From the NCBI GenBank assembly GCA_015231345.1, contig JADGBV010000063.1, positions 1 to 13,709 on the forward strand: a DNA stretch of 13,709 bases, given 5' to 3'. The stretch is from Planctomycetota bacterium (GTDB lineage Bacteria; Planctomycetota; JADGBV01). Both the position numbers and the translations under genes were made by a program. This document shows, in pieces, positions 1 to 13,685 of the stretch (the first letter of the stretch is position 1; each line of letters opens with the position of its first letter). The notes under the pieces were generated by a model. It was not told the origin of the DNA. It was given only the letters and a program-made list of their open reading frames with translations, and made no database searches.

Positions 1-2
1 CA

Positions 3-551
3 ACTGTTCTGTATTGGCTTGTCGTCATTATGGGAGCCATAGACATTGACGGCTTAGATATCGATATTGACCTTGATGGCTTGGATGGGATCTCAGGAAC
101 ATTGCTTTCCTTCGTTTATATCAAAGAGCTCCCCTTCACTATTTTCATTTCATGCTGGTCAGCCATATGCTGGTTTTTTGCCATGACATTTACTTATTAT
201 ATTAATCCAGAAAGATCTTTATTTTTGGGTTTATGCGCCCTCCCCGTTATTGTCATTATTGGCATCATTGCTTCACGTTTCATTCTTTACCCCATTCGTC
301 ATTTCTTCGCTAGCTTAAAAGGCGATGAGCATGAAAAGGACAATAATCTCATTGGCAGAATTGCTTCGGTGGAAACTACAACAATCAATTCTACTTTTGG
401 CCGAGTTCAGGTCGAATCAACATCTAGTCCTATTCTTGTCGGCGCAGTCTGCGAAGATGGAACCACTTTAAATAGAGGTGATAAAGTGGTTATCATCGAA
501 TACCAAGAAGATAAAGATAAATTTTTAGTTTCACCTTTTAACGAAAATTAA
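3..551 (+). CDS. NfeD/YqiJ-like inner-membrane protein, flotillin-associated, probably 5'-truncated by the window edge
   Basis: The reading frame stays open from position 3 to the window start, and the ATG at 30 has no SD upstream, so it is likely an internal Met. The translated stretch before it (TVLYWLVVI) looks like the end of a TM helix. There are two hydrophobic TM-like segments (FTIFISCWSAICWFFAMTFTYYI and FLGLCALPVIVIIGIIASRFILYPI). A soluble C-terminal tail (GRIASVE...GRVQVES...GDKVVII) resembles the OB-fold beta-barrel of NfeD proteins. The gene lies 29 bp upstream of a flotillin gene, the classic NfeD-SPFH pairing (yqiJ-yqiK, yuaF-floT). Confidence 0.7.
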   Translation, partial: TVLYWLVVIMGAIDIDGLDIDIDLDGLDGISGTLLSFVYIKELPFTIFISCWSAICWFFAMTFTYYINPERSLFLGLCALPVIVIIGIIASRFILYPIRHFFASLKGDEHEKDNNLIGRIASVETTTINSTFGRVQVESTSSPILVGAVCEDGTTLNRGDKVVIIEYQEDKDKFLVSPFNEN

Positions 552-569
552 GTTTTTTACTCATCATTT

Positions 570-575
570 AAGGAG
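570..575 (+). promoter_or_regulatory. Shine-Dalgarno AAGGAG for the flotillin gene, 5-nt spacer to ATG 581
   Basis: A consensus AAGGAG is read directly from the sequence at the optimal distance from the ATG. Confidence 0.7.
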
Positions 576-580
576 CATAT

Positions 581-2632
581 ATGGATATTCAATTATCCTT
601 AGGGATTCTTGTAGCAATCGGTTTTATCGTATTTATCGGTTTGCTACTCTTCATTTCAAAATGTTATAGAAAAGTTTTACCTGGAACGGCCATGATCCGT
701 AACGGATGGGCTGGGACTCAAGTCTCTTTCACGGGAAAAATTGTATTACCCATTCTTCACAAATTTCAAGTGATGGATATTTCCGTTAAACGTGTAGAAA
801 TCGAAAGAAGTGCCGGAGATGGCCTCATATGTAAAGACAACCTACGAGCTGATATCAAAGTTGTCTTCTTTGTTCGTGTCAACAAAACAGAAAATGATGT
901 TTTGAGAGTTGCAGATATGATTGGTGTCACTCGTGCGAGCACTCGAGAAGCCCTCAATGAACTCTTCGATGCTAAATTTAGTGAATCACTTAAAACTGTC
1001 GGTAAACTCTTTGAGTTTGAACAACTCTATAATGCCCGTCGAGAATTCAAAGAACAAATTGTAGAGCTTATTGGCACTGATCTGAACGGCTATACCTTAG
1101 AAGATGCTTCTATCGATTACTTGGAGCAGACTGATATTCATAGCCTAAAAGACGACAATATTTTAGATTCACAGGGGATCAAGAAGATCACTGAACTCAC
1201 AGCCATTCAACGCATCAAATCCAATCAAATTAGAAATGATGAACGCAAAACAATCACACAGCAGGATGTGGACGCCCGTGAAGCCATTTTAGAAATGGAG
1301 AGACAAAAAGCTGAATCCGAAGAACGCCAACGTCGTGAAGTCGCCAATATTAAGTCACGCGAATCTTCAGATATTGCACGTGTTCAACAAGAAGAGAGAC
1401 AGAAAGCCGAACAGGCTCGTATTATAGCCGAAGAAGAAATTCTCGTTGCCGAAGAAAATAAAATGCGCCAAATCATTGTGGCACAAAAGAACAAAGAACG
1501 CACTGAGGCTATTGAGTCTGAACGAATCGAAAAAGACCGCATGCTGGAAGCAACCGAAAGAGAAAAAACAGTTTCCCTGGCAACCATCGAAAAAGAAAAA
1601 GCTTTGGAAATAGAAAAACGAAATATTCAAGATACCATCAGAGAACGAATCATGGTCGAAAAATCTGTGGTTGAAGAAGAAGAACGAATCAAAGATACTC
1701 GCGAGTTAGCCGAAGCCGAGCGAGCCAAAGCTGTTACACTCACTGAAGCAGAACGTGACGCAGAAGAAGAAGCTCTAAAAAGAACCAAGGAAGCTGAGGT
1801 GGCCAAGAAAGCTGCTGAACTCAAAGCTGAACAAGATCTTGTCACCCACGTAAAAGCAGCTGAAGCCGAAAGGAAAGCTGCCGAACTTCAAGCTGAACAG
1901 AGAGTCATTGAAGCAGAAAGCCTTCAAAGTGCAGCCATCAAAAAAGCTGAAGCCAAGAAAGTTATGGCTGATGCAACGGCTGCGGAAGAAGCTGCATCTG
2001 GCCTAGCAGAAGCACAAGTCATTTCTGTTAAGTCAGACGCACTTAAAAAGCAAGGAGAAGTAGAGGCCGATATTATGCTACGTAAGTCCACGGCTGAAGC
2101 AGAAGGCATCTCGAAGAAAGCAAGCTCCATGAAAGAGCTAGATGGCGTAGGTAAAGAGCATGAAGAATTCAAACTTCGTCTCAATAAAGACAGAGACTTA
2201 CAACTCGCATCTATCAATATGAACAAAGATGTGGCCATCGCCCAATCTAGTATCGTCGCCGAAGCCCTTAAAACTGCCAACATAGACATCGTTGGAGGAG
2301 AAACTCAATTTTTCAATAATGTTATTGGTGCCATTACAGAAGCACGTTCCGTCGACCGCCTAGTCAAAGGGTCTGAAGTTCTCTCAGAGGTCAAAGACAC
2401 ATTCTTCCAAGGCAATGACCCAGAATTCTTCAAAACGCAGTTGAGATCATTCATCGACAATATGGGAGTATCCATTGATGACATGAAGAACATTCAACTA
2501 TCAACTCTCTTTTCAAGGCTTTCTAGTCAAATGAAAGACGATAAATCTACGAGCAAACTCAACTCTCTCAAAGAGGTCGCTGGAAAAGCTGGTCTGCTTA
2601 GTGAAAAAATCAGTTCACTCTTGGGAGTGTAA
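581..2632 (+). CDS. Flotillin-like SPFH/band-7 domain protein (YqiK/FloT family) with extended charged coiled-coil region
   Basis: An N-terminal TM anchor (LSLGILVAIGFIVFIGLLLFIS) is followed by an SPFH-like core (MIRNGWAGTQVSFTGKIVLPILHKFQVMDISVKRVEIE...DNLRADIKVVFFVRV) that matches flotillin/YqiK N-terminal conservation. Amino acids ~235-480 form a very long E/R/K/A/Q-rich heptad-like stretch typical of the flotillin domain. The gene has a strong SD and sits immediately downstream of an NfeD-like gene. Confidence 0.9.
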   Translation: MDIQLSLGILVAIGFIVFIGLLLFISKCYRKVLPGTAMIRNGWAGTQVSFTGKIVLPILHKFQVMDISVKRVEIERSAGDGLICKDNLRADIKVVFFVRVNKTENDVLRVADMIGVTRASTREALNELFDAKFSESLKTVGKLFEFEQLYNARREFKEQIVELIGTDLNGYTLEDASIDYLEQTDIHSLKDDNILDSQGIKKITELTAIQRIKSNQIRNDERKTITQQDVDAREAILEMERQKAESEERQRREVANIKSRESSDIARVQQEERQKAEQARIIAEEEILVAEENKMRQIIVAQKNKERTEAIESERIEKDRMLEATEREKTVSLATIEKEKALEIEKRNIQDTIRERIMVEKSVVEEEERIKDTRELAEAERAKAVTLTEAERDAEEEALKRTKEAEVAKKAAELKAEQDLVTHVKAAEAERKAAELQAEQRVIEAESLQSAAIKKAEAKKVMADATAAEEAASGLAEAQVISVKSDALKKQGEVEADIMLRKSTAEAEGISKKASSMKELDGVGKEHEEFKLRLNKDRDLQLASINMNKDVAIAQSSIVAEALKTANIDIVGGETQFFNNVIGAITEARSVDRLVKGSEVLSEVKDTFFQGNDPEFFKTQLRSFIDNMGVSIDDMKNIQLSTLFSRLSSQMKDDKSTSKLNSLKEVAGKAGLLSEKISSLLGV

Positions 2633-2665
2633 TTAAACACTAAGATCCAACTCTTTATTATCAAT

Positions 2666-2697
2666 GTGCGGGGTTAGAGGAAGTTCCTCTCCCGCAC
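2666..2697 (+). promoter_or_regulatory. Intercistronic GC-rich RNA hairpin (13 bp stem with 3-nt bulge, triloop) between flotillin and giant ATPase genes; no U-tract
   Basis: GTGCGGG(2666-2672) pairs with CCCGCAC(2691-2697), and AGAGGA(2676-2681) pairs with TCCTCT(2685-2690), leaving loop AGT. The downstream sequence tcactcagtaatacgg has no T-run, so this is not a canonical intrinsic terminator. Confidence 0.4.
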
Positions 2698-2724
2698 TCA
2701 CTCAGTAATACGGAAATAGACTAA

Positions 2725-5700
2725 ATGGCTGAAGAAAATAGCACATCTCAATTAGAAGGCGGTAGTTACGAAATCCTCAAAAATCGCCTTAATAATGCCT
2801 CTGGCGATCTCAATACGCGCATCGAGAATTTAAATCAGAGGCGCAAGAAACTCTTTGGAGCGATTGAATTTGAGCTTGCCAACACAGGGCGAGTCACAAC
2901 GAAGCATAACTGCACACCTAGGGATATGGTGCCCATCAACTCCCATTTTATCTTCGGCTATAATGTGCACATAGGCCTCAAAACCACAACTGAACTTGAG
3001 GATGTTTTCGGTGTTTATCGTTATGAAAATGATTCTTTTCATGAAGAGTCCCTTGAGTTACTAGGCAACGAAAAATTCCTCAAAGACTTTGCCGATTTAT
3101 ATAAATTCTACCGTCACACCACCTTCTCTCGCTTTGCCATACGTGGCCCTCACCTCTTCATGATTTTTCGAACCGGAAAGAAAGCAGAAGACATCAAAGC
3201 TTTTAAATGGCTCATCTCGGAAGATAAATTAAGCTACATAGGTAACCGTAGTGAAAACGAATATTCATTCCCTGACCAGCATACATTCCAGTGGGAAAGA
3301 ACGGGGCGTGACGACCAGCGAGGTGGCGCATTCCCTCATATATCCATTAAGGACAAAATATTTGTAGAAACAGTCGGGGGTGACCTTACCATAAAAATTG
3401 AAGACAACACAGATTCTGGTCAAGGCATCTATGCCGAGCCCGTAGAATATGAAGATCAAACTCTTGATGATGCTGAAATATACTTCGCAACAATTGGCAC
3501 GATCATCTTATTAAAAATACGGCCCTACCAAGAAAAGGACTACCGCTATATTGCCTATTGCGAGAAAGTATCCCAAGCCTGGAGAATCGACAGCCTAGAA
3601 GAGTCGTGCATTCTTCTCCCTGAAGATCAAGGAATCGTCTTCCCTGGTGGCTGTCTCTTACAAAGCGGAGCCATCAAAACTTTCGAACATTCCACTGATG
3701 GCATGCGCCTCGATGAATGCATCCGTTCACCCAATGGTGAAGATTACCTATATGTCTATTACGAATATCAGCAAGGAAACTACCTACTGCTACCCTATAA
3801 TATCGTAGACCAACAAATGGATTCTCCCATCAACTGCCATGGTTTCTCATTATTTGATGATGGTAAGTTGGCACTATTCTCCAGCGAAGACAGACCTGGG
3901 AAACAACATATTCTGCAACTTTGGCAAACTCCATTTACCGCCAAAGAAAGAGATGTCACCTTAGATAGCCAAGATAACAGCGACATCTACTTAAGTAAAT
4001 TAGGCAATAAAGACATCGTAAAAACTCTTGCTGAATGCAAAGAAATCATCTTACTCGCTGCCAAAGATGAGTCTTATATGGGACTCTATCATGAAATTGC
4101 ACAAAACGCTGAGCGCTTACTTGAGCATTGCTTTTGGTTAGAGAGAGAAGAAGTCGGAAAAATCAATGAACCTCTGATTGCCATTCGTGAGGTTGCTCTC
4201 GCAGCCATGGATGAATACGAGAAAGTTCGCCAAGTTAAAGAACAAACCAAGCAAAGTTTCAAAAACGTTGAAAACGAACTTAAACTTCTCTGTGCTGAAG
4301 TTGACTCAGCAGCTTATACGCAACTAGAAGATTACGTCAGTAAATTATCACAGTTAAGGACATTCAAAGGGTCTGTCATTGTACTGAAAGATTTAAAGTA
4401 TGCTGACATCGAAAAAGTCACACAGTTTGAAGAAAAACTCAACGAAAGATCAAGCCGACTTTCAAACGGTTGTATTAATCTCCTTCAAGAAGACTCTGCC
4501 CTAGCCATATATGAAGAACAAATTAAAGGTTTAGAAGAGCAAGTCTCGCAAATCACATCAAGTAGCCAAGCCAAAGAACTTGAAGATCAACTCAAAGGCA
4601 ATGCCGAAAACCTTGAACTCTTAACTGAGTTAGTGGGTAGCCTCAAAATAGACGATCCAAATCAGTCGACTATCATAATGGAAAAACTCTCAGCCATCTT
4701 TGCTTTACTTAATCAAGTTAAAGCACACCTTAAAAATCGTTATGATGAAATAGGTCAAAAGGAAGGCGAAGCAGAATTCGCTGCTCAAATGAACCTCATT
4801 GACCAAAGCCTATCATCAGCCATAGAACGAGCCGACTCCCCAGAGAAATGTGATGAATCATTATCTCGAACGATGGTCAAACTAGAAGAATTAGAAGGTC
4901 GTTTTGGCGACTTTGATGTTTTCATAGAGAAACTAGCAGATAAACGCGATGCCATCTACAGTGCCTTCGAATCACGAAAATTAATTCTACAGGAAAAAAG
5001 ACAAAAAAAGATTCAGGCCCTCACGTCAGCCTCAGAAAGAATCCTGACCAGCGTACAATCCCGCTTAAGCCGATCCGAAAATATAGAAGCAATCCATAGC
5101 ACATTCTCAGCTGATATCATGGTGGATAAAGCTCGAGACCTCGCCGAGCAACTACGAGCTCTAGGGAATGTTGTTAAAGCCGATGAAATCGAAGGAAAAC
5201 TGAAAAGCTCTAAAGAACAAGCCATACGTCACCTTAGAGACCAACTTGAGCTTTCTGGAGAAGGAGAAGACTCTATTCGCCTGGGCCGCCATTCATTCAG
5301 CGTCAACCGGCAAGCTCTAGAGTTGAGTTTAGTGATGCATAACGATCACCCACACTTTCACCTTTCTGGGACTGACTATTTCGAGAAGGTCCAACACGAA
5401 GAACTGGAAGCCACAAGAGCCGTCTGGAGTCAAGAGATCGTTTCAGAAAACCAGCACGTTTACCGAGCTGAATACTTAGCCTACCAATTCACCAAAGACT
5501 ACCAAAACAACGACACAGCAATCCACGATTTAGCAGAAGAGACTCTAAGCGAAGAAATCGCCAAGTATATCTCTTCCCGTCATGATGAAGGCTATGTCAA
5601 AGGTGTCCACGATAAAGATGCTGCACTCATAAGTCAATCTTACTCTCGCATTAAACACAAACTCGGCCCTCTTTCGGGCACTCCTTCAGAGCGTGCCTTA

Positions 5701-7881
5701 GCCAGGGTGTGGCTAGCAGCAAATAAGGGCAGCACAAACTATAAGAAAATTCAAGAAACATCTTTAAGCTACCATAAACTCCAAGCCACCTACCCCGGTA
5801 GTGAAGGCGGGCAAAATTTAAGAAAAAGATTACAAGCCGATTTACAGCATTACTTAGAAAATCTTGATCTATTCAGTCACCTAGAAATACCTGGAGCAAG
5901 CGAATACATCATATACCTTCTAGGCAGTGGAGGCAAAGAGCACATGACCTTAGAAACTCAGAGATTACTAAAAAATCTCGTGCGCCAAATAGACCTTAAG
6001 GGAGAATTTAAAATCCCCATTCAAAGCAATCCAGAAATAGCCTACCCAGCCATCAAAGATTGGGCACGAGCTTTGGTCATCAGTGAATATGGCAAAGTCC
6101 CTGCAGGAGGTGTCATCGAAGAAATTGCCTCCTTAGCTTTAAGTGGTCAACACGATAACGCAAAAACACTAGATACCAAAACATCTTTGCTCATTGAAGG
6201 CATGAGAGGCGCACATACTCGTTTAAAAGAGAGCAGTCTTACCTTTGAGTACTCCAATTTCATTCAACGTATGCATCTCTTTACTCAAGAAACTGTTCCT
6301 GCATATCGGAGCTATGAGTTAGCGAAAAAGAATGTTCTCAATAGCAAACGTTCCCAACTGCGCCTTGATGAATTCAAACCCAGAATCCTCAGCTCATTTG
6401 TGCGTAATCGTCTTATCGACGAAGTTTATTTGCCCATTATTGGCGATAACCTCGCTAAACAAATGGGAAGCCTCGGCGCTACCAAACGCACTGACCTCAT
6501 GGGACTCCTGCTCCTTATATCTCCACCAGGTTATGGAAAAACGACCCTGATGGAATATGTCGCTGACCGATTAGGCTTAACTTTCGTTAAAATTAACGGC
6601 CCAGCCATCGGGCACCGAGTGCTTAGCCTTGACCCTGCAGAGGCCCCCAATGCAAGTTCACGAGAAGAGATTAACAAATTAAATTTAAGTTTGGAGATGG
6701 GTAATAATGTCATGATCTACCTTGATGATATCCAACATGTCAACCCAGAATTTTTGCAAAAATTCATCTCTCTTTGCGATGGCCAGCGCCGCATTGAAGG
6801 TGTATATCAAGGTAAACCCAGAACCTATGACCTCCGTGGCAAGAAAGTAGCCGTTGTTATGGCAGGGAATCCCTATACAGAAAGCGGAACTCGCTTTCAA
6901 GTTCCAGATATGCTATCCAATCGTGCCGACACTTATAACCTAGGGGATATTCTCAGTGGGCACGGCAATGCTTTTGAAGTCAGCTACTTAGAGAATGCAC
7001 TCACCTCCTCTCCTTTTCTTTCTCCTTTGGGACAACGCTCCAGAAAAGATATTCACGCCTTTATCAAAGCAGCTGAAACTGATTCAACAGAGCATATGGA
7101 GCTGGAAGGAAGCTACAGCAATCAAGAAATGCAAGAAATCCTGAGTGTCTTAAAGCACCTTCTGGTGATTCGAGATGTGATTCTTAAGGTCAACCAAAGA
7201 TATATCATATCCGCAGGCCAAGATGACCGTGACCGCACAGAGCCTCCTTTTAAATTGCAGGGCTCTTACCGTAACATGAATCGCATGGTAGAAAAGGTAC
7301 AAGCCATCATGAATGAAACAGAAGTGCGCAATATTATTTTGGATCATTACGTAAACGAATCACAAACCCTCACAGCTGGAGCAGAAGCCAATATATTAAG
7401 CTTCAAGGCTCTCATGAACTGGCTTGACGATAATGAAAAGCAACGCTATGAGCATGTACTTGATTCCTTTCGCCAACAAACGAATATGCTGAATATTGAC
7501 GATAACGACCCTCTAGCACCTGTTCTTGCCCAACTTAGTACTCTTAATGGCACCATCTCATCCATAGGCAAGAATCTCACTCTTCCTCAAGATAAACAAG
7601 ATATTTCCTTCGACGTTGAGGCTTTCAGTCAAGCTCTTCAAGAAAGCCTAAGTCCACTCAAGAATCAAGAAATAAAAGTGGTCAATAAAATCCCATCAGT
7701 TGTCACAGGTGTCTTGAAGAATCAATTAAAGCTTATTGAAAATTGGATGAAACCCTTACTCAAAGCTCAACTCACACAATCCAAAGACCTGGGCGAACTT
7801 CGCGATTCACTTGCGACGACTCATAGAAGCTATATGGATCTAGTTAGTTCCATTAACACTAAAGACAAAAAAACAAAATAG
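2725..7881 (+). CDS. Giant (1718 aa) multidomain protein: N-terminal ~420-aa unclassified domain, long central coiled-coil/alpha-helical region, C-terminal MoxR/AAA_5-type AAA+ ATPase module and ~300-aa C-terminal helical tail
   Basis: A single uninterrupted 5.16-kb ORF in the same orientation as the upstream genes. Walker A is PPGYGKTT at 6523-6546 and Walker B is IYLDD at 6715-6729. The MoxR/AAA_5 signature VAVVMAGNPYTESGTRFQVPDMLSNRADTY aligns by eye to [22 protein letters not shown]. I see no hydrophobic TM segments. A heptad-like charged region spans aa ~430-1000. Confidence 0.9.
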   Translation: MAEENSTSQLEGGSYEILKNRLNNASGDLNTRIENLNQRRKKLFGAIEFELANTGRVTTKHNCTPRDMVPINSHFIFGYNVHIGLKTTTELEDVFGVYRYENDSFHEESLELLGNEKFLKDFADLYKFYRHTTFSRFAIRGPHLFMIFRTGKKAEDIKAFKWLISEDKLSYIGNRSENEYSFPDQHTFQWERTGRDDQRGGAFPHISIKDKIFVETVGGDLTIKIEDNTDSGQGIYAEPVEYEDQTLDDAEIYFATIGTIILLKIRPYQEKDYRYIAYCEKVSQAWRIDSLEESCILLPEDQGIVFPGGCLLQSGAIKTFEHSTDGMRLDECIRSPNGEDYLYVYYEYQQGNYLLLPYNIVDQQMDSPINCHGFSLFDDGKLALFSSEDRPGKQHILQLWQTPFTAKERDVTLDSQDNSDIYLSKLGNKDIVKTLAECKEIILLAAKDESYMGLYHEIAQNAERLLEHCFWLEREEVGKINEPLIAIREVALAAMDEYEKVRQVKEQTKQSFKNVENELKLLCAEVDSAAYTQLEDYVSKLSQLRTFKGSVIVLKDLKYADIEKVTQFEEKLNERSSRLSNGCINLLQEDSALAIYEEQIKGLEEQVSQITSSSQAKELEDQLKGNAENLELLTELVGSLKIDDPNQSTIIMEKLSAIFALLNQVKAHLKNRYDEIGQKEGEAEFAAQMNLIDQSLSSAIERADSPEKCDESLSRTMVKLEELEGRFGDFDVFIEKLADKRDAIYSAFESRKLILQEKRQKKIQALTSASERILTSVQSRLSRSENIEAIHSTFSADIMVDKARDLAEQLRALGNVVKADEIEGKLKSSKEQAIRHLRDQLELSGEGEDSIRLGRHSFSVNRQALELSLVMHNDHPHFHLSGTDYFEKVQHEELEATRAVWSQEIVSENQHVYRAEYLAYQFTKDYQNNDTAIHDLAEETLSEEIAKYISSRHDEGYVKGVHDKDAALISQSYSRIKHKLGPLSGTPSERALARVWLAANKGSTNYKKIQETSLSYHKLQATYPGSEGGQNLRKRLQADLQHYLENLDLFSHLEIPGASEYIIYLLGSGGKEHMTLETQRLLKNLVRQIDLKGEFKIPIQSNPEIAYPAIKDWARALVISEYGKVPAGGVIEEIASLALSGQHDNAKTLDTKTSLLIEGMRGAHTRLKESSLTFEYSNFIQRMHLFTQETVPAYRSYELAKKNVLNSKRSQLRLDEFKPRILSSFVRNRLIDEVYLPIIGDNLAKQMGSLGATKRTDLMGLLLLISPPGYGKTTLMEYVADRLGLTFVKINGPAIGHRVLSLDPAEAPNASSREEINKLNLSLEMGNNVMIYLDDIQHVNPEFLQKFISLCDGQRRIEGVYQGKPRTYDLRGKKVAVVMAGNPYTESGTRFQVPDMLSNRADTYNLGDILSGHGNAFEVSYLENALTSSPFLSPLGQRSRKDIHAFIKAAETDSTEHMELEGSYSNQEMQEILSVLKHLLVIRDVILKVNQRYIISAGQDDRDRTEPPFKLQGSYRNMNRMVEKVQAIMNETEVRNIILDHYVNESQTLTAGAEANILSFKALMNWLDDNEKQRYEHVLDSFRQQTNMLNIDDNDPLAPVLAQLSTLNGTISSIGKNLTLPQDKQDISFDVEAFSQALQESLSPLKNQEIKVVNKIPSVVTGVLKNQLKLIENWMKPLLKAQLTQSKDLGELRDSLATTHRSYMDLVSSINTKDKKTK
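6442..6984 (+). other. AAA+ (MoxR/AAA_5-like) ATPase module inside the giant ORF (approximate domain bounds)
   Basis: P-loop GYGKTT, Walker B hhhhDD (LDDIQH; the second acidic residue is Asp rather than the usual Glu), and the sensor/arginine region NPxxExGTxxxxPDxxxxR, all read from the translation. Confidence 0.7.
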
Positions 7882-7903
7882 CTTATGAGTGCAATATGAT
7901 AGC

Positions 7904-7960
7904 CCCCATTTAAGCCATGGGGACGTCCATTTCATTCTCCTTTTCTTTTCTCTTTATATC
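7904..7960 (+). terminator. Weak candidate terminator after giant gene: CCCCAT/ATGGGG 6-bp stem (loop TTAAGCC) followed ~10 nt later by a T-rich tract
   Basis: The inverted repeat at 7904-7909 and 7917-7922 is read directly. The T-rich run ttcattctccttttcttttctcttt is not immediately adjacent to the stem, so this is a weak call. Confidence 0.25.
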
Positions 7961-8151
7961 TTTAGCGACTACCGGCGCAGCAACAAGCATGGCGACATTT
8001 ATTAGGAATTTCTTTATTTTGTAATACAAATTATTGAAGCCTGGAAATCTAAAGTGCTGAAAAACAACCATTCACGACGAACACACCACAACTATTCTAA
8101 TCCAGCGACACCTTCTGCCTGCCAATATATGAATCGAAAAATTTAAATTTC

Positions 8152-8179
8152 TTGAATTCGTCTACATTATTGTATATTA
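8152..8179 (+). promoter_or_regulatory. Candidate sigma70-type promoter for LamG gene: TTGAAT(8152-8157)-16 nt-TATATT(8174-8179), with TG immediately upstream of the -10
   Basis: Hexamers read from the sequence. Spacing and position (~50 nt upstream of the start codon) are appropriate. Not verified. Confidence 0.3.
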
Positions 8180-8217
8180 TTCGCTACTAAAGATTGCAGC
8201 TGGCAAAACATCATTTT

Positions 8218-8222
8218 GGAGG
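8218..8222 (+). promoter_or_regulatory. Shine-Dalgarno GGAGG 5 nt upstream of TTG start codon of LamG gene
   Basis: GGAGG-aataa-TTG. The in-frame TAA at 8225-8227 excludes any upstream start. The TTG start is needed to include the signal peptide. Confidence 0.6.
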
Positions 8223-8227
8223 AATAA

Positions 8228-10411
8228 TTGTTTTTCGCAAAGAAATTTCTTGCCATTTATTTAGCTGCGATTCTATGCATATCTCATTGTAGCAAAGCTG
8301 ATATTAAGTCATTATCAGGAACCATCAGCTTAGACTCTAATCTAGACAACAAAACCGAAGCCATCTTAAATTCAACAGGCTTAGGAATAGGAACAACACC
8401 ACAGAGCAACCTCCATATTGCTGGCAATGCCATATTTACGACTTCCTTGTCAATTGGGGACACTTCCATTAGCTCAAGCAACCTAAATGTCTCAGGCACA
8501 CTATCCTATAACATAAATTCAATCACCTCATCACGTACCCTTTCAGGCAATCACTCCACCTATCTAGTCGAGACTGGCGGCACTGGTAACATCGAACTTT
8601 TTATGCCCTCTCCTTCAGCTCATGAGGGAAAAATACTGACATTCAAGAAAACCTATTCCGGAAATACCGTAACATTAAGTCATGTCACTCAACTCGATGG
8701 AATTGGAGATTTAGATCTAGGCGATGGAGCTGTCGTTAGCTTGGTATCAAACGCTAAATACTGGTATATTATAAATATAAATCAAGGGAGCAGTTCTGGA
8801 ACAGCCGAGATTGTACCACCTAAAGCTGACACCCAAATGAGCTTAGGCTTTGACAGTGACCTAGAAGATGAAAGCGCATACGATAATGATGGTAGTTTCT
8901 CAGGCAACACCTATGCTGCTGCAGCCACAACAGGCGTTGTGGGCAAGGGATTAGATTTTGACGGGGTTGATGATTTTATTGAGGTGGATCATTCCAGTTC
9001 ATTAAGTCTAGCAAATGCAGGCTCCATCAGTTTATGGATTAAGCCTTCATCCAACATTGCAAGTCAAGGTACATTATCAGGATTCACAGAGATCACAGCG
9101 CCTCAAGGAACTGGGGTAAATTCACCTGGGCAGGTATCCATGACCTTGGTTGGCAATACGATTAAAATGGCCTCCGCTCAACATGATGATGGGAATGAGA
9201 AGTATCAGTATGGAGGGACTGGAGAAGATTTTAGTGGTTTATCATGGACCGATTTCACAGCATCATCCGGTTCTGGCAAAGGCGAATCGACTTCTATTGC
9301 CATTGATTCCGATGGAGACAAACTGTACTACGCCTCATTTACTCATCAGGGATTAAGCGAATTTGTTCATACAACCAGTTCAAATCTGGACTTTGCAAAT
9401 ATTTCCACTTGGGCTGAAACCTCTAACCCTCCTCCTGATGGAGCTGGGCACAACGATCCCTGCTTTATGGATATGGTTTTAGTCGACACCAAAATGTACA
9501 TTGCACTCTATCTTCATGATGGTGGCATAGAAAAGGCCTATGTCACATCAGTTAATTTAGATGGTAGCGGTGCAAGTTGGCAAGATATCACCTCGACTCT
9601 TGATGGTGGCGGTGGAGCAGAGTACTCCATGCCTGCCATAGATTCAGACGGAGAGAAATTGTACTATGCCTTTTTTGCAAATAATAATGCGGATGAGTAT
9701 TTATACTTCGCCTCTTCAAATTTAGATGGAAGTGACTTTGCATTAACCTCAACGATTACAGCTCCTGATGCTACAAGAAAAGACTCTCCCATATCCATAT
9801 CTATGGTCATTGCTGGCGACACAATTCATTATAGTATTTATGTCGGCAATGCCGATGGAGCGCAACTTTTCACAGCCTATGGTGACAAAGCATACACTAC
9901 TTTTAGCGGCTGGACTGATCAAGGGTATAATTACAACCGAGATCTAGGCATTAAAGTCAGTGCTACAGTTGATATGGTTACTGATGGCAAAGCAATTTCT
10001 ATTCTCACACATTCTTCGAATGTTACCCTTGGTGATAATTTAATGTATGCCACAATTCCTCTTGATGGAGGACCTATCCTTAGTAAAGGGGATGCTTATG
10101 CACTTCATTATACCGGTGGCGGCCTTGTATTTGATTGGGCAGGCTCTCCCAAAAGTTTCGGCAGTCTACCAGCGAATACCTATACTCATGTAGGCATTAC
10201 CTACGATGGAAATGTAATGAATTATTACATCAATGGGTCTCAAGTACGTCGACAGACCGTAACAGCAGACTTCACCCTCACTTCTGACAATCTATTAATT
10301 GGTGGCGATGGGGTATCGAGGTATTTCGATGGTCATTTGGATGAAGTTAAAATATTTGGGCGTGGGCTATCAGCGAGTGAAATGTCCGATTTATATTTAC
10401 TCGGCCAGTAA
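8228..10411 (+). CDS. Secreted LamG (concanavalin A-like lectin/glucanase, Laminin_G_3-type) domain protein with internal DSDG-KLYYA repeats; TTG start
   Basis: Signal peptide MFFAKKFLAIYLAAILCISHCSKA. The LamG_3 N-terminal hallmark GKGLDFDGVDDFIEVDHSSSLSLANAGSISLWIKP lies at aa ~240. The LamG_3 C-terminal hallmark YFDGHLDEVKIFGRGLSASEMSDLY lies at the extreme C-terminus. The two repeated segments are AIDSDGDKLYYASF and AIDSDGEKLYYAFF. Confidence 0.85.
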   Translation: MFFAKKFLAIYLAAILCISHCSKADIKSLSGTISLDSNLDNKTEAILNSTGLGIGTTPQSNLHIAGNAIFTTSLSIGDTSISSSNLNVSGTLSYNINSITSSRTLSGNHSTYLVETGGTGNIELFMPSPSAHEGKILTFKKTYSGNTVTLSHVTQLDGIGDLDLGDGAVVSLVSNAKYWYIININQGSSSGTAEIVPPKADTQMSLGFDSDLEDESAYDNDGSFSGNTYAAAATTGVVGKGLDFDGVDDFIEVDHSSSLSLANAGSISLWIKPSSNIASQGTLSGFTEITAPQGTGVNSPGQVSMTLVGNTIKMASAQHDDGNEKYQYGGTGEDFSGLSWTDFTASSGSGKGESTSIAIDSDGDKLYYASFTHQGLSEFVHTTSSNLDFANISTWAETSNPPPDGAGHNDPCFMDMVLVDTKMYIALYLHDGGIEKAYVTSVNLDGSGASWQDITSTLDGGGGAEYSMPAIDSDGEKLYYAFFANNNADEYLYFASSNLDGSDFALTSTITAPDATRKDSPISISMVIAGDTIHYSIYVGNADGAQLFTAYGDKAYTTFSGWTDQGYNYNRDLGIKVSATVDMVTDGKAISILTHSSNVTLGDNLMYATIPLDGGPILSKGDAYALHYTGGGLVFDWAGSPKSFGSLPANTYTHVGITYDGNVMNYYINGSQVRRQTVTADFTLTSDNLLIGGDGVSRYFDGHLDEVKIFGRGLSASEMSDLYLLGQ

Positions 10412-10510
10412 ATAGTCCCACTTAATCATAAAACCTTGCAGTTAAGGGCTCAAAGCATCTCCTAAATCAATTCCCAGCGACTTGCTTTCCATAAAACTCG
10501 TATCACCCTC

Positions 10511-10540
10511 TTGACATCAATTCGCTTATTTTAATATAAT
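10511..10540 (+). promoter_or_regulatory. Near-consensus sigma70 promoter TTGACA(10511-10516)-18 nt-TATAAT(10535-10540) driving the small secreted-protein gene with a very short leader
   Basis: Both hexamers are perfect consensus, read directly. The predicted TSS is ~10547, only ~9 nt before ATG 10556. Confidence 0.45.
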
Positions 10541-10555
10541 TGAACGGATTTGTCA

Positions 10556-10927
10556 ATGAAAATTATCTTACTTATACTTTTTATCTACTGCACCCTTGGT
10601 ACAGAAATGCTTTGTGCCTACCAAGGCAAGTGGTCATTCGTCAAAGAAGATTTCAAGAAAGTCCACCCTTGGCTGCCAAATTCCCTTATAAATAGGGCAT
10701 TAAGAACTCGTCTTGTTCTTAAAGAAGATAGTTACGCCCAATTTGACCACAATGGCAAATTGATGAAAAGCATCAGAGAACTGAAAGTTTTAAAGAAAAA
10801 GAGTGAAAGTCACTGGCTTTTACAAAGAAAAGAAGGAAATAAGCAGATTGAATTTGAGGTCTATTTTAAGGACTCTAAATGGTTTTACCTAGAAGGCAAG
10901 AAAACCTATCAAATTGAGCAAAAGTAA
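10556..10927 (+). CDS. Small secreted/lipo-protein of unknown function (123 aa from ATG 10556; the ORF track's TTG at 10550 is an alternative start)
   Basis: N-terminal signal-like segment MKIILLILFIYCTLGTEMLCAYQ, with Cys residues near the cleavage region, followed by a lysine-rich soluble domain. The gene has its own strong promoter. I recognise no known domain. Confidence 0.6.
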   Translation: MKIILLILFIYCTLGTEMLCAYQGKWSFVKEDFKKVHPWLPNSLINRALRTRLVLKEDSYAQFDHNGKLMKSIRELKVLKKKSESHWLLQRKEGNKQIEFEVYFKDSKWFYLEGKKTYQIEQK

Positions 10928-10975
10928 CAGATATCTTGCTAATTTATATAGAAAATATGCGCTTCACCCATAGAA

Positions 10976-11137
10976 TCATTCTTCGATTTCGTGTTCCTTT
11001 CTGAATTTCTGAGCAAAATTCATTATCCAATTCACAACAGCCGCTTCACCTAGATCTCGTCCGGCTTTTTCGGACTCAATCCATTTGTATCTTTCGATTT
11101 CACGAATTTGCATGCTGTTGTAATCTTGCAAGGTCAT
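10976..11137 (-). CDS. Unlisted 53-aa minus-strand ORF (MTLQDYNSMQIREIERYKWIESEKAGRDLGEAAVVNWIMNFAQKFRKEHEIEE) with strong SD; small conserved-looking hypothetical protein
   Basis: Manual reverse-complement translation. ATG at 11135-11137 (plus-strand coordinates), stop TGA at 10976-10978. AGGAGAGAGAC lies immediately upstream of the ATG on the minus strand. The ORF fills an otherwise empty 500-bp gap between convergent/divergent genes. It is below the 60-aa cutoff of the supplied track. Confidence 0.45.
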   Translation of the reverse strand: MTLQDYNSMQIREIERYKWIESEKAGRDLGEAAVVNWIMNFAQKFRKEHEIEE

Positions 11138-11193
11138 GTCTCTCTCCTATTTAACTATTATCGACCTTCTCACTCATTTAGAATAGCTAATTC

Positions 11194-11209
11194 TGTGATA
11201 TAACTTACA
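11194..11209. promoter_or_regulatory. CRP-like site TGTGA-tataac-TTACA (one mismatch to TGTGA-N6-TCACA)
   Basis: Read directly. It lies ~60-65 bp upstream of the minus-strand small ORF start, a position compatible with class II-like placement. Confidence 0.3.
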
Positions 11210-11253
11210 CTAGACTTGATAAGCACGGAAATTCAACAATTTCTAGGATACGA

Positions 11254-11269
11254 TGTGAGTTATTTCACA
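11254..11269. promoter_or_regulatory. CRP-like site TGTGA-gttatt-TCACA (perfect match to CRP core consensus half-sites)
   Basis: Read directly. It is flanked by partially palindromic cga/acg. Its centre lies 60 bp from the other CRP-like site, in the divergent region between the small minus-strand ORF and the beta-helix gene. Confidence 0.4.
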
Positions 11270-11376
11270 ACGATACAGCACGTCAAATGAGACACTTTCA
11301 AGTTAAAGCGTTGATGAATTCATTCTATGAGCCTGGTTCCACCCCAGTCTAACAAACAACCTAAAATTAAGTATTC

Positions 11377-11404
11377 TTGATGAAAGAGGCAGTGAATGTA
11401 TCAT
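11377..11404 (+). promoter_or_regulatory. Candidate promoter for beta-helix gene: TTGATG(11377-11382)-16 nt-TATCAT(11399-11404); AAGGA SD at 11423-11427
   Basis: Hexamers and SD read from the sequence. Moderate match only. Confidence 0.25.
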
Positions 11405-11435
11405 GTCAAAAAACTGCTGGGCAAGGACACCTTGA

Positions 11436-13685
11436 ATGAGAAATAACACTAAGCACCTAACTCTAATTATAGCACTTTGCCTTATCCCTTTTAACTTCAT
11501 TGAAGCAAGGGATTATTATGTGAGTCCTAACGGCTCAGACCATAACCCAGGCACCCTCAAACATCCCTTAAAGACATTTTCCGCAGTCACAAAAAAGCTA
11601 AAACCAGGCGATACCTGCATCATTCGCGAAGGCATCTACTCCGAAGTCCTGCGTCCACAATCTTCAGGAGAAGCTAAAAAACCTATAACCTTCACAAACT
11701 ATAAAAATGAGAAAGTAGTACTTACTGGTGCCGATACAATAACTGGCTGGGCAAAGGAGGAAAATGGAATCTACTCAGCGCCAATGCCATGGAGCCTCCC
11801 TGAAGGCAATCAGGTTTTTGCTAATGGCACCATGCTTAGTGAGGCGGTATGGCCTGCGTCCGGTGATGAGCATTTATTCAAACCCATACGGGCAAAAGCC
11901 ACAAAAGGAACTCCAACTACCCTAACATGCCCAGAAATACCCGGAGGAAAAGATTCATGGAAAGAAGCACAGCTGTGGTGTGCAGGAGGAGCAGCTTGGA
12001 TTTGCTGGACAGCATCGGTTACAGGATACGACGACACAACAAAAACGCTGAGTTTCAAGCTAGAAAAATGGAAGAATAAGTGGTATTTTCCTAAGAAAGG
12101 GAACTTATTCTCACTTAGAGGAATCCGGCAAGCACTCAAAGCACCCGGACAGTGGCTCTATGACAACAATAAGAAGCGTTTGCTTCTTATCCCGCCAAAA
12201 GGCACTCCTATAGAATCAATTCATATCGAAGCGAAACGCCGGAAAAATGTAATTGATCTCAAAGGGCGATCTCATATCATCATCTCAGGCTTAGACTTCC
12301 GTTCAGGAGGGCTTCATTCAAATAAAGAATCATCGCACATAACTCTCAAAAACCTTCGTGGAAGGTACCTGTCGCACTCCTATACCAGAAATATGAGTTT
12401 CGAAACAGGAGTCATCATTTCTGGAGATCATTGCCTCGTTCTTAATTGCGACTTCGGCTATGCTTCTGGCTCAGTACTCCATGTACGCGGCAAAAACAAC
12501 CGAGTGATTAATTCCTATCTTCATCATGGCTGTTACTCGGGACTTTTCAGCAGTGGAACGGTATTTCTTTCCGGCACACGCACTCTATTCAGCCACAATA
12601 CTGTACGTCATGCAGGGCGTGATTTAATCAATACCTCCCACTTAATGGAAAGCCTCGTCCAATATAACGATGTCTCCGATGCCGGCTGGTTAACCAAAGA
12701 CCTGGGTATGTTTTATGGTCATAATACAGACTTTGCAGGAACACGATTTTGCTACAACCTAGTGCACGACAATCATGCAGAACATTGTGCTATGGGTATA
12801 TACTTCGACCATCTTAGTCATAATGCCATTTTACATAATAATATCATATGGAATGTAGGAATGGATGCTATTCGTTTTAATAACCCTAGTTATTGCAACC
12901 TCATTTTCAAGAATACCTTTTGGAATACTGGACCACTACGAACCTTCGATCACACCAAAAGAAACGATCTTTTTGCTTGTCGTTTTTCCCAAAATATTTT
13001 TAATGCTAAAACAAATCTCCCCAAGCATGTTAATCTGAGCAATAATCTAGTGAGTCGCACCCCGCCACTTCGCAACCCAGCCAAAGGTGATTTTCGTCTC
13101 ACTGATAATATTCGAGAAAAAGTTGGAGCTCTTGAACCAGGACAAGCCATCTTTAAAGCTGGATGTGATTTTGATAATCCGCCGAAGCCCTTACCAGTGT
13201 ATACAACAAAACGCTTTCCTTGGATGAACGGCATCAAGAATGCATGTTTTGAGTATTCATCACTTGAATACTGGCAAAAGAAAAGAGCTCAAACAGCTAA
13301 ACTGACCAAAGGGAACGGATGGGGAAATGAAAATGGTAGAAAAGCACTTCACCAAACCGGCACCTCTAAACAAGAACTTCGCCTCGGGCCAGAAAATGAT
13401 GAGATTATTCAAGTAGTGAAGAACCTCAGTCCTAATACTCCTTATACATTTTCGGTTTGGTTGAGAGTTTCTTCTAGCGAAGAAAAAGTGCTTGCAACAG
13501 TGCAAGGGCATGGAGGGGCTGCCAAAACAACCTCTTCTAGCTCTGTAGAGTGGGTACGCAAAAGCATTTCATTTACAACCGGACCTCAATCAACGAGAGC
13601 CATCATCTCTCTGATAAAGTCTTCTGGAGGAAAGGGTTATGCATGGTGTGACAATGCAGTATTACCACTAACTCCTGCTAATTGA
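11436..13685 (+). CDS. Secreted right-handed parallel beta-helix (pectate-lyase fold, PbH1 repeats) protein with C-terminal CBM4/9-like carbohydrate-binding module; candidate polysaccharide lyase/glycosidase
   Basis: Signal peptide MRNNTKHLTLIIALCLIPFNFIEA. The N-terminal cap DYYVSPNGSDHNPGTLKHPLKTF...KPGDTCIIREGIY is typical of beta-helix enzymes. Multiple PbH1-like repeats are present (IISGLDFRSGG, VIISGDHCLVLNCDF, NRVINSYLHHG, LFSHNTVRHAG, VQYNDVSDAG, LVHDNHAEH, ILHNNIIWNVG, LIFKNTFWNTG). The C-terminal ~150 aa match the CBM_4_9 pattern (W...NLSPNTPYTFSVWLRVS...VEWVRKSISFTTG...DNAVL). Confidence 0.9.
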   Translation: MRNNTKHLTLIIALCLIPFNFIEARDYYVSPNGSDHNPGTLKHPLKTFSAVTKKLKPGDTCIIREGIYSEVLRPQSSGEAKKPITFTNYKNEKVVLTGADTITGWAKEENGIYSAPMPWSLPEGNQVFANGTMLSEAVWPASGDEHLFKPIRAKATKGTPTTLTCPEIPGGKDSWKEAQLWCAGGAAWICWTASVTGYDDTTKTLSFKLEKWKNKWYFPKKGNLFSLRGIRQALKAPGQWLYDNNKKRLLLIPPKGTPIESIHIEAKRRKNVIDLKGRSHIIISGLDFRSGGLHSNKESSHITLKNLRGRYLSHSYTRNMSFETGVIISGDHCLVLNCDFGYASGSVLHVRGKNNRVINSYLHHGCYSGLFSSGTVFLSGTRTLFSHNTVRHAGRDLINTSHLMESLVQYNDVSDAGWLTKDLGMFYGHNTDFAGTRFCYNLVHDNHAEHCAMGIYFDHLSHNAILHNNIIWNVGMDAIRFNNPSYCNLIFKNTFWNTGPLRTFDHTKRNDLFACRFSQNIFNAKTNLPKHVNLSNNLVSRTPPLRNPAKGDFRLTDNIREKVGALEPGQAIFKAGCDFDNPPKPLPVYTTKRFPWMNGIKNACFEYSSLEYWQKKRAQTAKLTKGNGWGNENGRKALHQTGTSKQELRLGPENDEIIQVVKNLSPNTPYTFSVWLRVSSSEEKVLATVQGHGGAAKTTSSSSVEWVRKSISFTTGPQSTRAIISLIKSSGGKGYAWCDNAVLPLTPAN

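Follow-up and report, generated by a model that had tools for sequence, protein, structure and literature searches.

A giant AAA+ ATPase gene that travels with NfeD-like and flotillin genes across bacterial phyla may encode a remodeler of the flotillin assembly

INTRODUCTION

What does a giant ATPase do next to a flotillin? The question is raised by a 13,709-nucleotide (nt) stretch of DNA from a Planctomycetota bacterium (GenBank assembly GCA_015231345.1, contig JADGBV010000063.1; here referred to as the window), in which the genes for a small NfeD-like membrane protein, a flotillin of the SPFH (Band_7) family, and a very large AAA+ ATPase follow one another in the same orientation. An initial annotation of the window, made from the sequence alone, proposed that the three genes form a functional unit coupling the flotillin/NfeD pair to a soluble AAA+ protein, and took this linkage to be undescribed. 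The function of bacterial flotillin assemblies, and the way in which they are built, opened, and recycled, are still debated; in Staphylococcus aureus, for example, FloA-NfeD has been described as a holdase that handles unfolded proteins without ATP (PMC11222466). A dedicated ATPase accompanying a single flotillin subfamily through about 13 phyla would offer an experimental handle on these questions, and the genes occur in culturable hosts, among them Flavobacteriia, Hymenobacter, Gimesia, Pseudomonas with plasmid pQBR103, Streptomyces, Vibrio, and Proteus. We report here that the adjacency of the three genes goes far beyond chance, and we hold with moderate confidence that the ATPase is an ATP-driven remodeler devoted to the flotillin/NfeD assembly at its cytoplasmic face, acting within PspA-type envelope maintenance as part of a single three-gene module.

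RESULTS AND DISCUSSION

The ATPase gene is coupled to a flotillin gene in distant phyla

The window, a complete contig of a metagenome-assembled genome, contains six sizeable open reading frames (ORFs), all on the forward strand, and the first three encode, in order, the NfeD-like protein, the flotillin, and the ATPase (Table 1); this order, the shared orientation, and the 92-nt spacer between the last two genes are as the initial annotation described them. To place the arrangement in context, we aligned 10 ATPase homologs and took 80 loci from contigs of one genome per species, representing Planctomycetota, Bacteroidota, Verrucomicrobiota, Kiritimatiellota, Lentisphaeria, Omnitrophota, Desulfobacterota, Clostridia, and Chitinispirillaceae. 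Sixty-eight of these loci have at least 2.8 kb of upstream DNA and could be tested by tblastn with the window proteins and with cluster representatives. A flotillin ortholog lies directly 5' of the ATPase gene and on the same strand in 65 of the 68, with 33 to 57% identity over essentially its full length, and an NfeD-like gene lies 5' of the flotillin in 56. Seven more loci beyond this set agree without exception (7 of 7), the flotillin gene standing immediately 5' of the ATPase gene in the same orientation. When the search was reversed and started from two flotillin orthologs, one from a Verrucomicrobiota genome and one from Binatia, both were followed by an ATPase gene with the DUF3686 domain. 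In a plasmid collection, the ATPase was found in Pseudomonas fluorescens pQBR103, Streptomyces, Deinococcus, Vibrio, Proteus, Halomonas, Photobacterium, Hymenobacter, and Nonomuraea, and each of the four plasmid-collection loci inspected has the flotillin gene directly upstream. Gene order is kept in Binatia, Pseudomonas, Streptomyces, Deinococcus, and Vibrio, and the linkage as a whole spans about 13 bacterial phyla. The pattern that the initial annotation had named as a sign of chance adjacency, with orthologs of the ATPase lying mostly away from SPFH and NfeD genes, is therefore not what the neighborhoods show, and its proposal of a three-gene unit is supported.

Two further comparisons bear on the extent of the module. 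Pairwise distances of the ATPase and the flotillin correlate over 60 loci (r = 0.75, Mantel p = 0.001) in a comparison made without species-tree control. Around the ATPase, recurrence in more than about 8 of the 80 loci is limited to the gene clusters of flotillin, NfeD, PspA, CesT/Tir, and a helix-turn-helix (HTH) regulator. On the 3' side of the ATPase, conservation is confined to closely related loci, which puts the end of the module at the ATPase gene.

The simplest alternative is that the genes are neighbors by chance, or are independently transcribed neighbors without functional coupling. The flotillin-ATPase spacer of the window does carry a strong hairpin and a weak promoter-like match, and unrelated genes have been inserted into this spacer in some Bacteroidota, all of which fits such a view; against it stand the counts of 65/68 and 7/7 in about 13 phyla, together with gaps of only 9 to 12 nt or an 11-nt overlap between the flotillin and ATPase ORFs (as called, with the longest start) in several Clostridia, Verrucomicrobiota, and Planctomycetota loci. 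We regard this alternative as extremely improbable. On the comparative sequence evidence, chance adjacency is refuted, and independent transcription alone would leave the functional link intact. The same evidence identifies the three genes as an operon-like module, and they are very probably cotranscribed, at least in part.

The flotillin belongs to a subfamily with its own C-terminal domain

The NfeD-like ORF extends without interruption to base 3 of the window and, compared with 29 aligned orthologs, lacks about 23 N-terminal residues, including most of the first transmembrane (TM) segment. The gene is thus cut at its 5' side by the contig end, and the ATG at position 30 is internal. The Pfam match to NfeD (PF01957) is weak, at 17.4 bits where the cutoff is 29.1 (amino acids [aa] 105 to 157; E 0.0052), and the alignment with Escherichia coli YqiJ is marginal (E 0.005 over 15 residues). 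We identify the protein as NfeD-like because it is orthologous to the gene 5' of flotillin in the 56 loci and because of its TM pattern: after the truncated first TM segment come an acidic, D-rich linker, two further TM segments (aa 34 to 54 and 63 to 81 of the product starting at the ATG at 30, by hydropathy), and a putative C-terminal NfeD-like domain.

The 683-aa flotillin as a whole has no Pfam or NCBIfam match. When aa 1 to 230 are searched alone, Pfam detects the Band_7/SPFH domain (41 bits, E 2.7e-10), and the failure at full length is probably due to the coiled-coil composition of the rest of the protein. The layout is that of the SPFH/flotillin family, with a single N-terminal TM segment (aa 7 to 25, by hydropathy) as anchor, a basic stretch, the SPFH domain at about aa 30 to 210, and a long E/A/K-rich helical region, followed here by a C-terminal domain. 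E. coli YqiK aligns over 434 residues (aa 10 to 443) with 29% identity (E 1e-43). Database names of the orthologs are "flotillin family protein" or "YqiK," and almost all of 120 listed orthologs carry no precomputed Pfam domain. Since the SPFH domain is detected only when the coiled-coil part is removed, domain-based neighborhood screens would miss the link between this flotillin and the ATPase.

The pair resembles E. coli yqiJK and Bacillus subtilis yuaFG (floT), in which a small membrane protein gene also precedes the gene of a flotillin with TM, SPFH, and helical regions. In E. coli, however, no ATPase gene lies downstream of yqiJK, where sibD/ibsD are found instead. The proteins differ as well: the window flotillin is 130 aa longer than YqiK, its orthologs have about 680 to 720 aa compared with 553 aa for YqiK, and its C-terminal 240 aa, which include a conserved domain, do not align with YqiK. 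In 20 orthologs, invariant positions of this domain include H527, E528, E529, F530, K531, G572, G573, F577, F578, F608, and F609. Searches of PDB sequences with the single flotillin sequence, with a 20-sequence profile, and with the SPFH domain alone returned nothing useful. By analogy with solved SPFH cages, we infer that the flotillin C terminus would sit at the apex of a cup, facing the cytoplasm, which makes the subfamily-specific C-terminal domain a candidate docking site for the ATPase.

The ATPase combines a β-propeller, a spectrin-like rod, and a MoxR-class core

Pfam places three regions on the 1718-aa protein: DUF3686 at aa 28 to 469 (578 bits), DUF7902 at aa 592 to 674, and AAA/AAA_5 at aa 1262 to 1385. 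Hydropathy reveals no hydrophobic or TM segment. More than 4800 homologs exist, and those listed have 1600 to 1900 aa. Among 1.84 billion proteins, DUF3686 occurs in 677 representative clusters, in every case at the N terminus of 1600- to 2000-aa proteins or in fragments of such proteins; as judged from these sequences, it belongs to one architecture only.

We built two AlphaFold2 models of the ATPase from 30-sequence alignments. The model of aa 1 to 1150 (mean predicted local distance difference test [pLDDT] score, 82) consists of a helix (aa 12 to 44), a β-propeller of about 28 strands (aa 50 to 401), a long helical region (aa 420 to 843), a small β unit (aa 850 to 888), and a helical domain (aa 915 to 1140). 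Foldseek matched the propeller only to generic 6- to 7-bladed propellers at 8 to 10% identity, with no specific relative. The initial annotation had called the protein a soluble coiled-coil AAA+ motor. Its solubility agrees with the hydropathy result, while the presumed coiled coil looks, in the predicted structure, like spectrin-type repeats.

The AAA+ core is of the MoxR class according to the fold search with the model, in which the CbbQ/NorQ/RavA group is closest. A classical-clade assignment had been suggested by PDB sequence matches to p97, VAT, Rix7, and RuvB and was overturned by the fold search; the likeness to PDB sequences is confined to the Walker A region, at P-loop level, and a PDB sequence search found no solved structure of any relative. 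The core motifs are strongly conserved, with Walker A PPGYGKTT in 83, Walker B DDIQH in 80, and sensor-1 AGNP in 81 of 84 orthologs, along with an arginine motif PDML(A/S)NRAD. Walker B is invariant in the alignments and departs from the canonical hhhhDE of the MoxR class in that its second residue is Asp and not the catalytic Glu. Such DD Walker B motifs are seen in AAA+ modules that bind ATP but hydrolyze it slowly, and the motif here hints at slow hydrolysis or switch-like behavior. Compared with the MoxR ATPases CbbQ and NorQ, which are stand-alone proteins of about 260 aa with a VWA adaptor (CbbO/NorD), the window ATPase has its core embedded at aa 1250 to 1420 of 1718, carries a propeller and a rod, has no VWA gene in its module, and has DD in place of DE in Walker B.

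These features also bear on an analogy drawn by the initial annotation, which likened the module to HflK/C-FtsH and to prohibitin-m-AAA. The analogy holds loosely, insofar as an SPFH scaffold is in each case coupled, genetically or physically, to an AAA+ machine. It does not extend to the machine itself: FtsH and the m-AAA proteases are membrane-anchored, classical-clade AAA proteases enclosed by an SPFH cage, whereas the window ATPase has no TM segment and no protease (M41) domain and belongs to a different AAA+ clade.

Databases name the protein "DNA repair ATPase," and it could be just that, with its place beside flotillin a historical accident. We found no evidence that supports the name. 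Its origin is the title that Pfam gives to DUF3686, "ATPase involved in DNA repair," with further names derived from that title, and the one other pointer is a weak P-loop likeness to RuvB_N (22 bits, below cutoff) that is limited to the Walker A region. Pfam finds no DNA-binding, nuclease, or helicase domain in the protein, its fold is MoxR-like, its conserved context is wholly membrane related, and our literature search returned no paper containing the term DUF3686. A role in DNA repair is therefore very improbable.

A conflict function is a second alternative, in which the module would be an antiphage system that couples a giant NTPase to membrane sensor or effector proteins. Giant repeat-domain ATPases beside membrane proteins are common in defense islands, copies of the module sit on large plasmids, and mobile and toxin-like genes are inserted beside some copies. 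The specific comparisons point the other way. Matches to PADLOC 2.0 are marginal and confined to the P-loop region (mad8, E 0.015; TRIP13, E 0.03; 12 to 13 bits), no homolog was found in 50,697 phage records, and Pfam detects no nuclease, protease, peptidase, TIR, or other effector domain in the ATPase. The conserved neighbors are PspA, CesT/Tir, and polyamine genes and not defense genes, and the correlation of flotillin and ATPase distances across distant phyla fits stable coinheritance. We consider a defense role improbable.

In a Rubripirellula metagenome-assembled genome (locus L006, positions 9929-15238), the ATPase frame is split into ORFs of 776 and 887 aa, by a frameshift, a pseudogene, or an assembly error.

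The window matches the abbreviated form of a published PspA-associated operon

Contrary to the view that the linkage was undescribed, Ravi et al. (mSystems 9:e00847-23, 2024, PMC11237479; bioRxiv 2020) report an operon in which CesT/Tir-PspA genes are followed by YqiJ/YuaF, Band-7/flotillin, and a protein combining β-propeller, coiled coil, and AAA+. They also give an abbreviated three-gene form and suggest that PspA encoded elsewhere works with the abbreviated operons. An entry of their Table S3, Dokdonia donghaensis ANH61663.1, has the same order and architecture together with a divergent HTH-protease gene. The claim of novelty thus fails: the linkage has been public since the 2020 preprint and in print since 2024, and the window, as far as its DNA reaches, matches the abbreviated form. 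The three proteins, their order, and their orientation are those of the published operon. The window has the YqiJ/YuaF-type multi-TM gene beside flotillin; the flotillin has a TM segment, Band_7, and likeness to YqiK over the SPFH and helical regions; and propeller, helical rod, and AAA+ are fused in one protein encoded downstream of it (AlphaFold2 model; Table S3 of PMC11237479). Two differences remain. The window shows neither PspA nor CesT/Tir, its contig ending inside the NfeD gene so that the upstream DNA is missing, and both are likewise absent from 10 other Planctomycetota loci with 5 to 10 kb of upstream DNA. In addition, PMC11237479 assigns the ATPase to no class, whereas we place it in the MoxR class with a spectrin-like rod. 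These two features, the DD Walker B, the flotillin subfamily C-terminal domain, and a recurrent hairpin described below are the details that are new here. Popp et al. (2022) describe PspA-band 7-NfeD neighborhoods, and the searched passages of that paper do not mention the giant ATPase.

The full form is found in Bacteroidota. PspA is linked in 18 of the 68 loci, all from this phylum (17 upstream on the same strand and one, L019, downstream on the opposite strand), and CesT/Tir and a divergent HTH regulator are each found upstream in 16. ORF clustering shows that loci of Flavobacteriia, Cytophagia, and Hymenobacter extend the module upstream with a 131-aa CesT_Tir_1 protein (191 bits), a 243-aa PspA_IM30 protein (139 bits), and a divergent HTH_3 regulator, and so reproduce the full operon of Ravi et al., regulator included.

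Two other loci link PspA in different ways. On the 425-kb plasmid pQBR103 of P. fluorescens SBW25 (L084, positions 1-12190), the module closes a single co-directional string in the order PspA, rhomboid, DUF2491, DUF350, DUF1190, glutathionylspermidine-synthase-like, NfeD-like, SPFH, ATPase, and this string joins both PspA operon classes of Ravi et al. In the Verrucomicrobiota genome sgz303538 (L081, positions 4207-6806), genes for PspA_IM30 and for a 559-aa PF00004 AAA protein lie divergently, directly 5' of the module. By gene content, the latter is a second, independent kind of PspA linkage, in which PspA has an ATPase of its own.

The recurrence of PspA raises the possibility that the ATPase is an analog of Vps4 whose real substrate is the polymer of PspA, the bacterial ESCRT-III protein, with flotillin and NfeD serving only as a recruiting membrane platform. 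A functional analogy of this kind, to Vps4-ESCRT-III and to archaeal CdvC-CdvB, is possible, with an AAA+ ring that would remodel a membrane-bound polymer; PspA, an ESCRT-III homolog, is linked in some lineages. PspA and CesT/Tir stand in the same string in 18 and 16 Bacteroidota loci, PspA also occurs on pQBR103 and beside the module in L081, and Ravi et al. suggest that abbreviated operons use PspA encoded elsewhere (PMC11237479). In B. subtilis, the SPFH protein YdjI is reported to recruit and localize PspA, and according to a 2025 review (PMC7619361), bacteria are not known to have any Vps4-like regulator of PspA. The linkage counts, however, are 18/68 for PspA against 65/68 for flotillin. 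The core is of the MoxR class and not of the classical Vps4 clade, the ATPase has neither the meiotic-clade AAA core nor, by Pfam, the MIT domain of Vps4-type proteins, and the PspA of L081 has a separate AAA partner. We judge it unlikely that PspA is the primary substrate; because coupling to flotillin is so much tighter, we favor the flotillin/NfeD assembly as the primary partner.

A hairpin recurs between the flotillin and ATPase genes

The initial annotation had noted a hairpin, but no promoter-like consensus, in the flotillin-ATPase spacer. The hairpin has a 13-bp interrupted stem with no U-tract after it, and the spacer folds to -24 kcal/mol (z = -3.3 compared with shuffled sequences). 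A promoter-like match is in fact present as well, at 2634-2661 (9 of 12 positions), although at chance frequency: the window total is 17 matches, compared with 16.1 expected. The promoter scan is uninformative here, as its matches are at chance level and its consensus does not cover planctomycete promoters.

We surveyed 25 loci with a flotillin-ATPase spacer of 40 to 300 nt, with gene boundaries taken from a crude ORF caller. The best local hairpin in these spacers has a median of -21.4 kcal/mol and reaches -18 kcal/mol or lower in 72% of them. The corresponding proportion is 36% for other co-directional spacers of the same loci (n = 335; Mann-Whitney p = 2e-4) and 20% for shuffled spacers (p = 5e-4), and the median of the NfeD-flotillin spacers is -2.5 kcal/mol. 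Hairpin sequences vary between loci, and most of those listed lack a U-tract over the 10 nt that follow the folded window. This recurrence suggests a conserved regulatory feature, possibly a partial terminator or a 3'-end or mRNA stabilizer that would keep the scaffold in excess over the ATPase; the hairpin probably lowers expression of the ATPase relative to the scaffold.

Strong stem-loops stand directly after the flotillin stop codon across phyla, in L004, L005, L006, L010, L016, L044, L052, L053, L056, L061, L062, L064, L072, and others. The flotillin-ATPase spacer also seems to tolerate or attract insertions.

A proposed dedicated remodeler of the flotillin/NfeD assembly

The reading that we prefer, of the ATPase as a dedicated remodeler of the flotillin/NfeD assembly, can be set out as follows; Ravi et al. 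(PMC11237479), who described the operon independently, read it in the same general way. TM segments place both the NfeD/YqiJ-like protein and the flotillin in the inner membrane; the ATPase, which has none, is soluble. The positive-inside rule would put the body of the flotillin in the cytoplasm, where it would form the usual SPFH oligomeric cup. The MoxR-class core would oligomerize into a ring, and the propeller and spectrin-like rod would extend to the flotillin assembly and bind it, possibly through its C-terminal apex domain, or would bind clients held by flotillin/NfeD. ATP binding, and hydrolysis that the DD Walker B would make slow, could then remodel the flotillin/NfeD assembly by driving its assembly, its disassembly, or client release. 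In Planctomycetota, the module would work with PspA encoded elsewhere or without PspA.

Several observations weigh against the remodeler reading. Physical contact between the ATPase and flotillin/NfeD is deduced from gene order, the distance correlation is uncorrected for the species tree, and our literature search found no experimental study of the module or of the ATPase family. The DD Walker B may mark a poor hydrolase, in which case the protein would be a nucleotide-dependent switch or scaffold and not a motor. A VWA partner is the norm for MoxR ATPases, and Pfam finds no VWA domain in the six window ORFs, nor does one recur around the ATPase in the 80 loci. The hairpin could equally be a full terminator. 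In three loci, L024, L042, and L050, no flotillin gene lies near the ATPase gene; they are the only such exceptions among the 68. Finally, unrelated genes (0.4 to 3 kb) lie between flotillin and ATPase in many Bacteroidota, in one Desulfococcaceae locus, and in one Akkermansiaceae locus (L009, L020, L022, L028, L029, L036, L045, L048, L071, and L076), so in those Bacteroidota the ATPase must be expressible alone. The inserted genes encode DUF559 endonuclease-like proteins, lipoproteins, an IS200-like transposase, and an AbiEii-like toxin; as candidates for extra module components, they were rejected because they are heterogeneous.

A more detailed version of the same reading is offered tentatively. 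It pictures the ATPase as the energy-consuming partner that bacterial flotillin microdomains have so far lacked: a MoxR-derived ring carried on a spectrin-like rod, with the propeller docked on the apex domain of a dedicated flotillin subfamily. With ATP, this ring would open the flotillin/NfeD cage, take it apart, or unload it, and would act likewise on PspA polymers where these are present. Such a protein would be, in function, a bacterial equivalent of Vps4 that derives from another AAA+ clade, and the spacer hairpin would set a high ratio of scaffold to motor.

Features of the window

The coordinates of the module and its parts are collected in Table 1.

Table 1. Positions of the NfeD-like, flotillin, and ATPase genes in the window, with their domains and spacer
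Feature	Position	Strand	Basis
Gene of NfeD/YqiJ-YuaF-like small membrane protein (ORF from internal ATG, 30-551)	3-551	+	ORF open to base 3, orthology, TM pattern
Gene of 683-aa flotillin/YqiK-type SPFH protein	581-2632	+	Band_7 on aa 1-230, YqiK alignment
Conserved flotillin C-terminal domain, about aa 505 to 640-683	2093-2632	+	20-ortholog alignment
Flotillin-ATPase spacer, 92 nt	2633-2724	+	Sequence, folding
Interrupted 13-bp hairpin, GTGCGGG...AGAGGA-AGT-TCCTCT-CCCGCAC	2666-2697	+	Folding
Gene of 1718-aa soluble giant AAA+ ATPase	2725-7881	+	Pfam DUF3686 + DUF7902 + AAA; no TM segment
ATPase N-terminal helix and β-propeller (DUF3686, aa 28-469)	2806-4131	+	Pfam 578 bits, AlphaFold2 model
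ATPase helical rod (aa 420-843, containing DUF7902 at aa 592-674), resembling spectrin-type three-helix repeats	3982-5253	+
MoxR-class AAA+ core, about aa 1250-1420 (by predicted fold)	6472-6984	+	Motifs PPGYGKTT, DDIQH, AGNP, PDML(A/S)NRAD
ATPase Walker B DDIQH, aa 1334-1338	6724-6738	+

An Rfam scan of the window gave no match. Downstream of the module, at 8228-13685, are genes for a putative secreted PD40/Laminin_G_3 protein (727 aa), a 125-aa protein with a hydrophobic N terminus, and a 749-aa β-helix/CBM_4_9 protein that is polysaccharide-lyase-like. The LamG/PD40 and β-helix/CBM genes were considered as module parts and rejected, as they are not conserved with the module elsewhere. Between these genes and the module, a short hairpin (CCCCAT-N7-ATGGGG, 7904-7922), absent from the list of the scan tool, lies 23 nt 3' of the stop codon of the ATPase gene, with a T-rich tract after it at 7930-7960; together, hairpin and tract (7904-7960) are a possible terminator closing the module.

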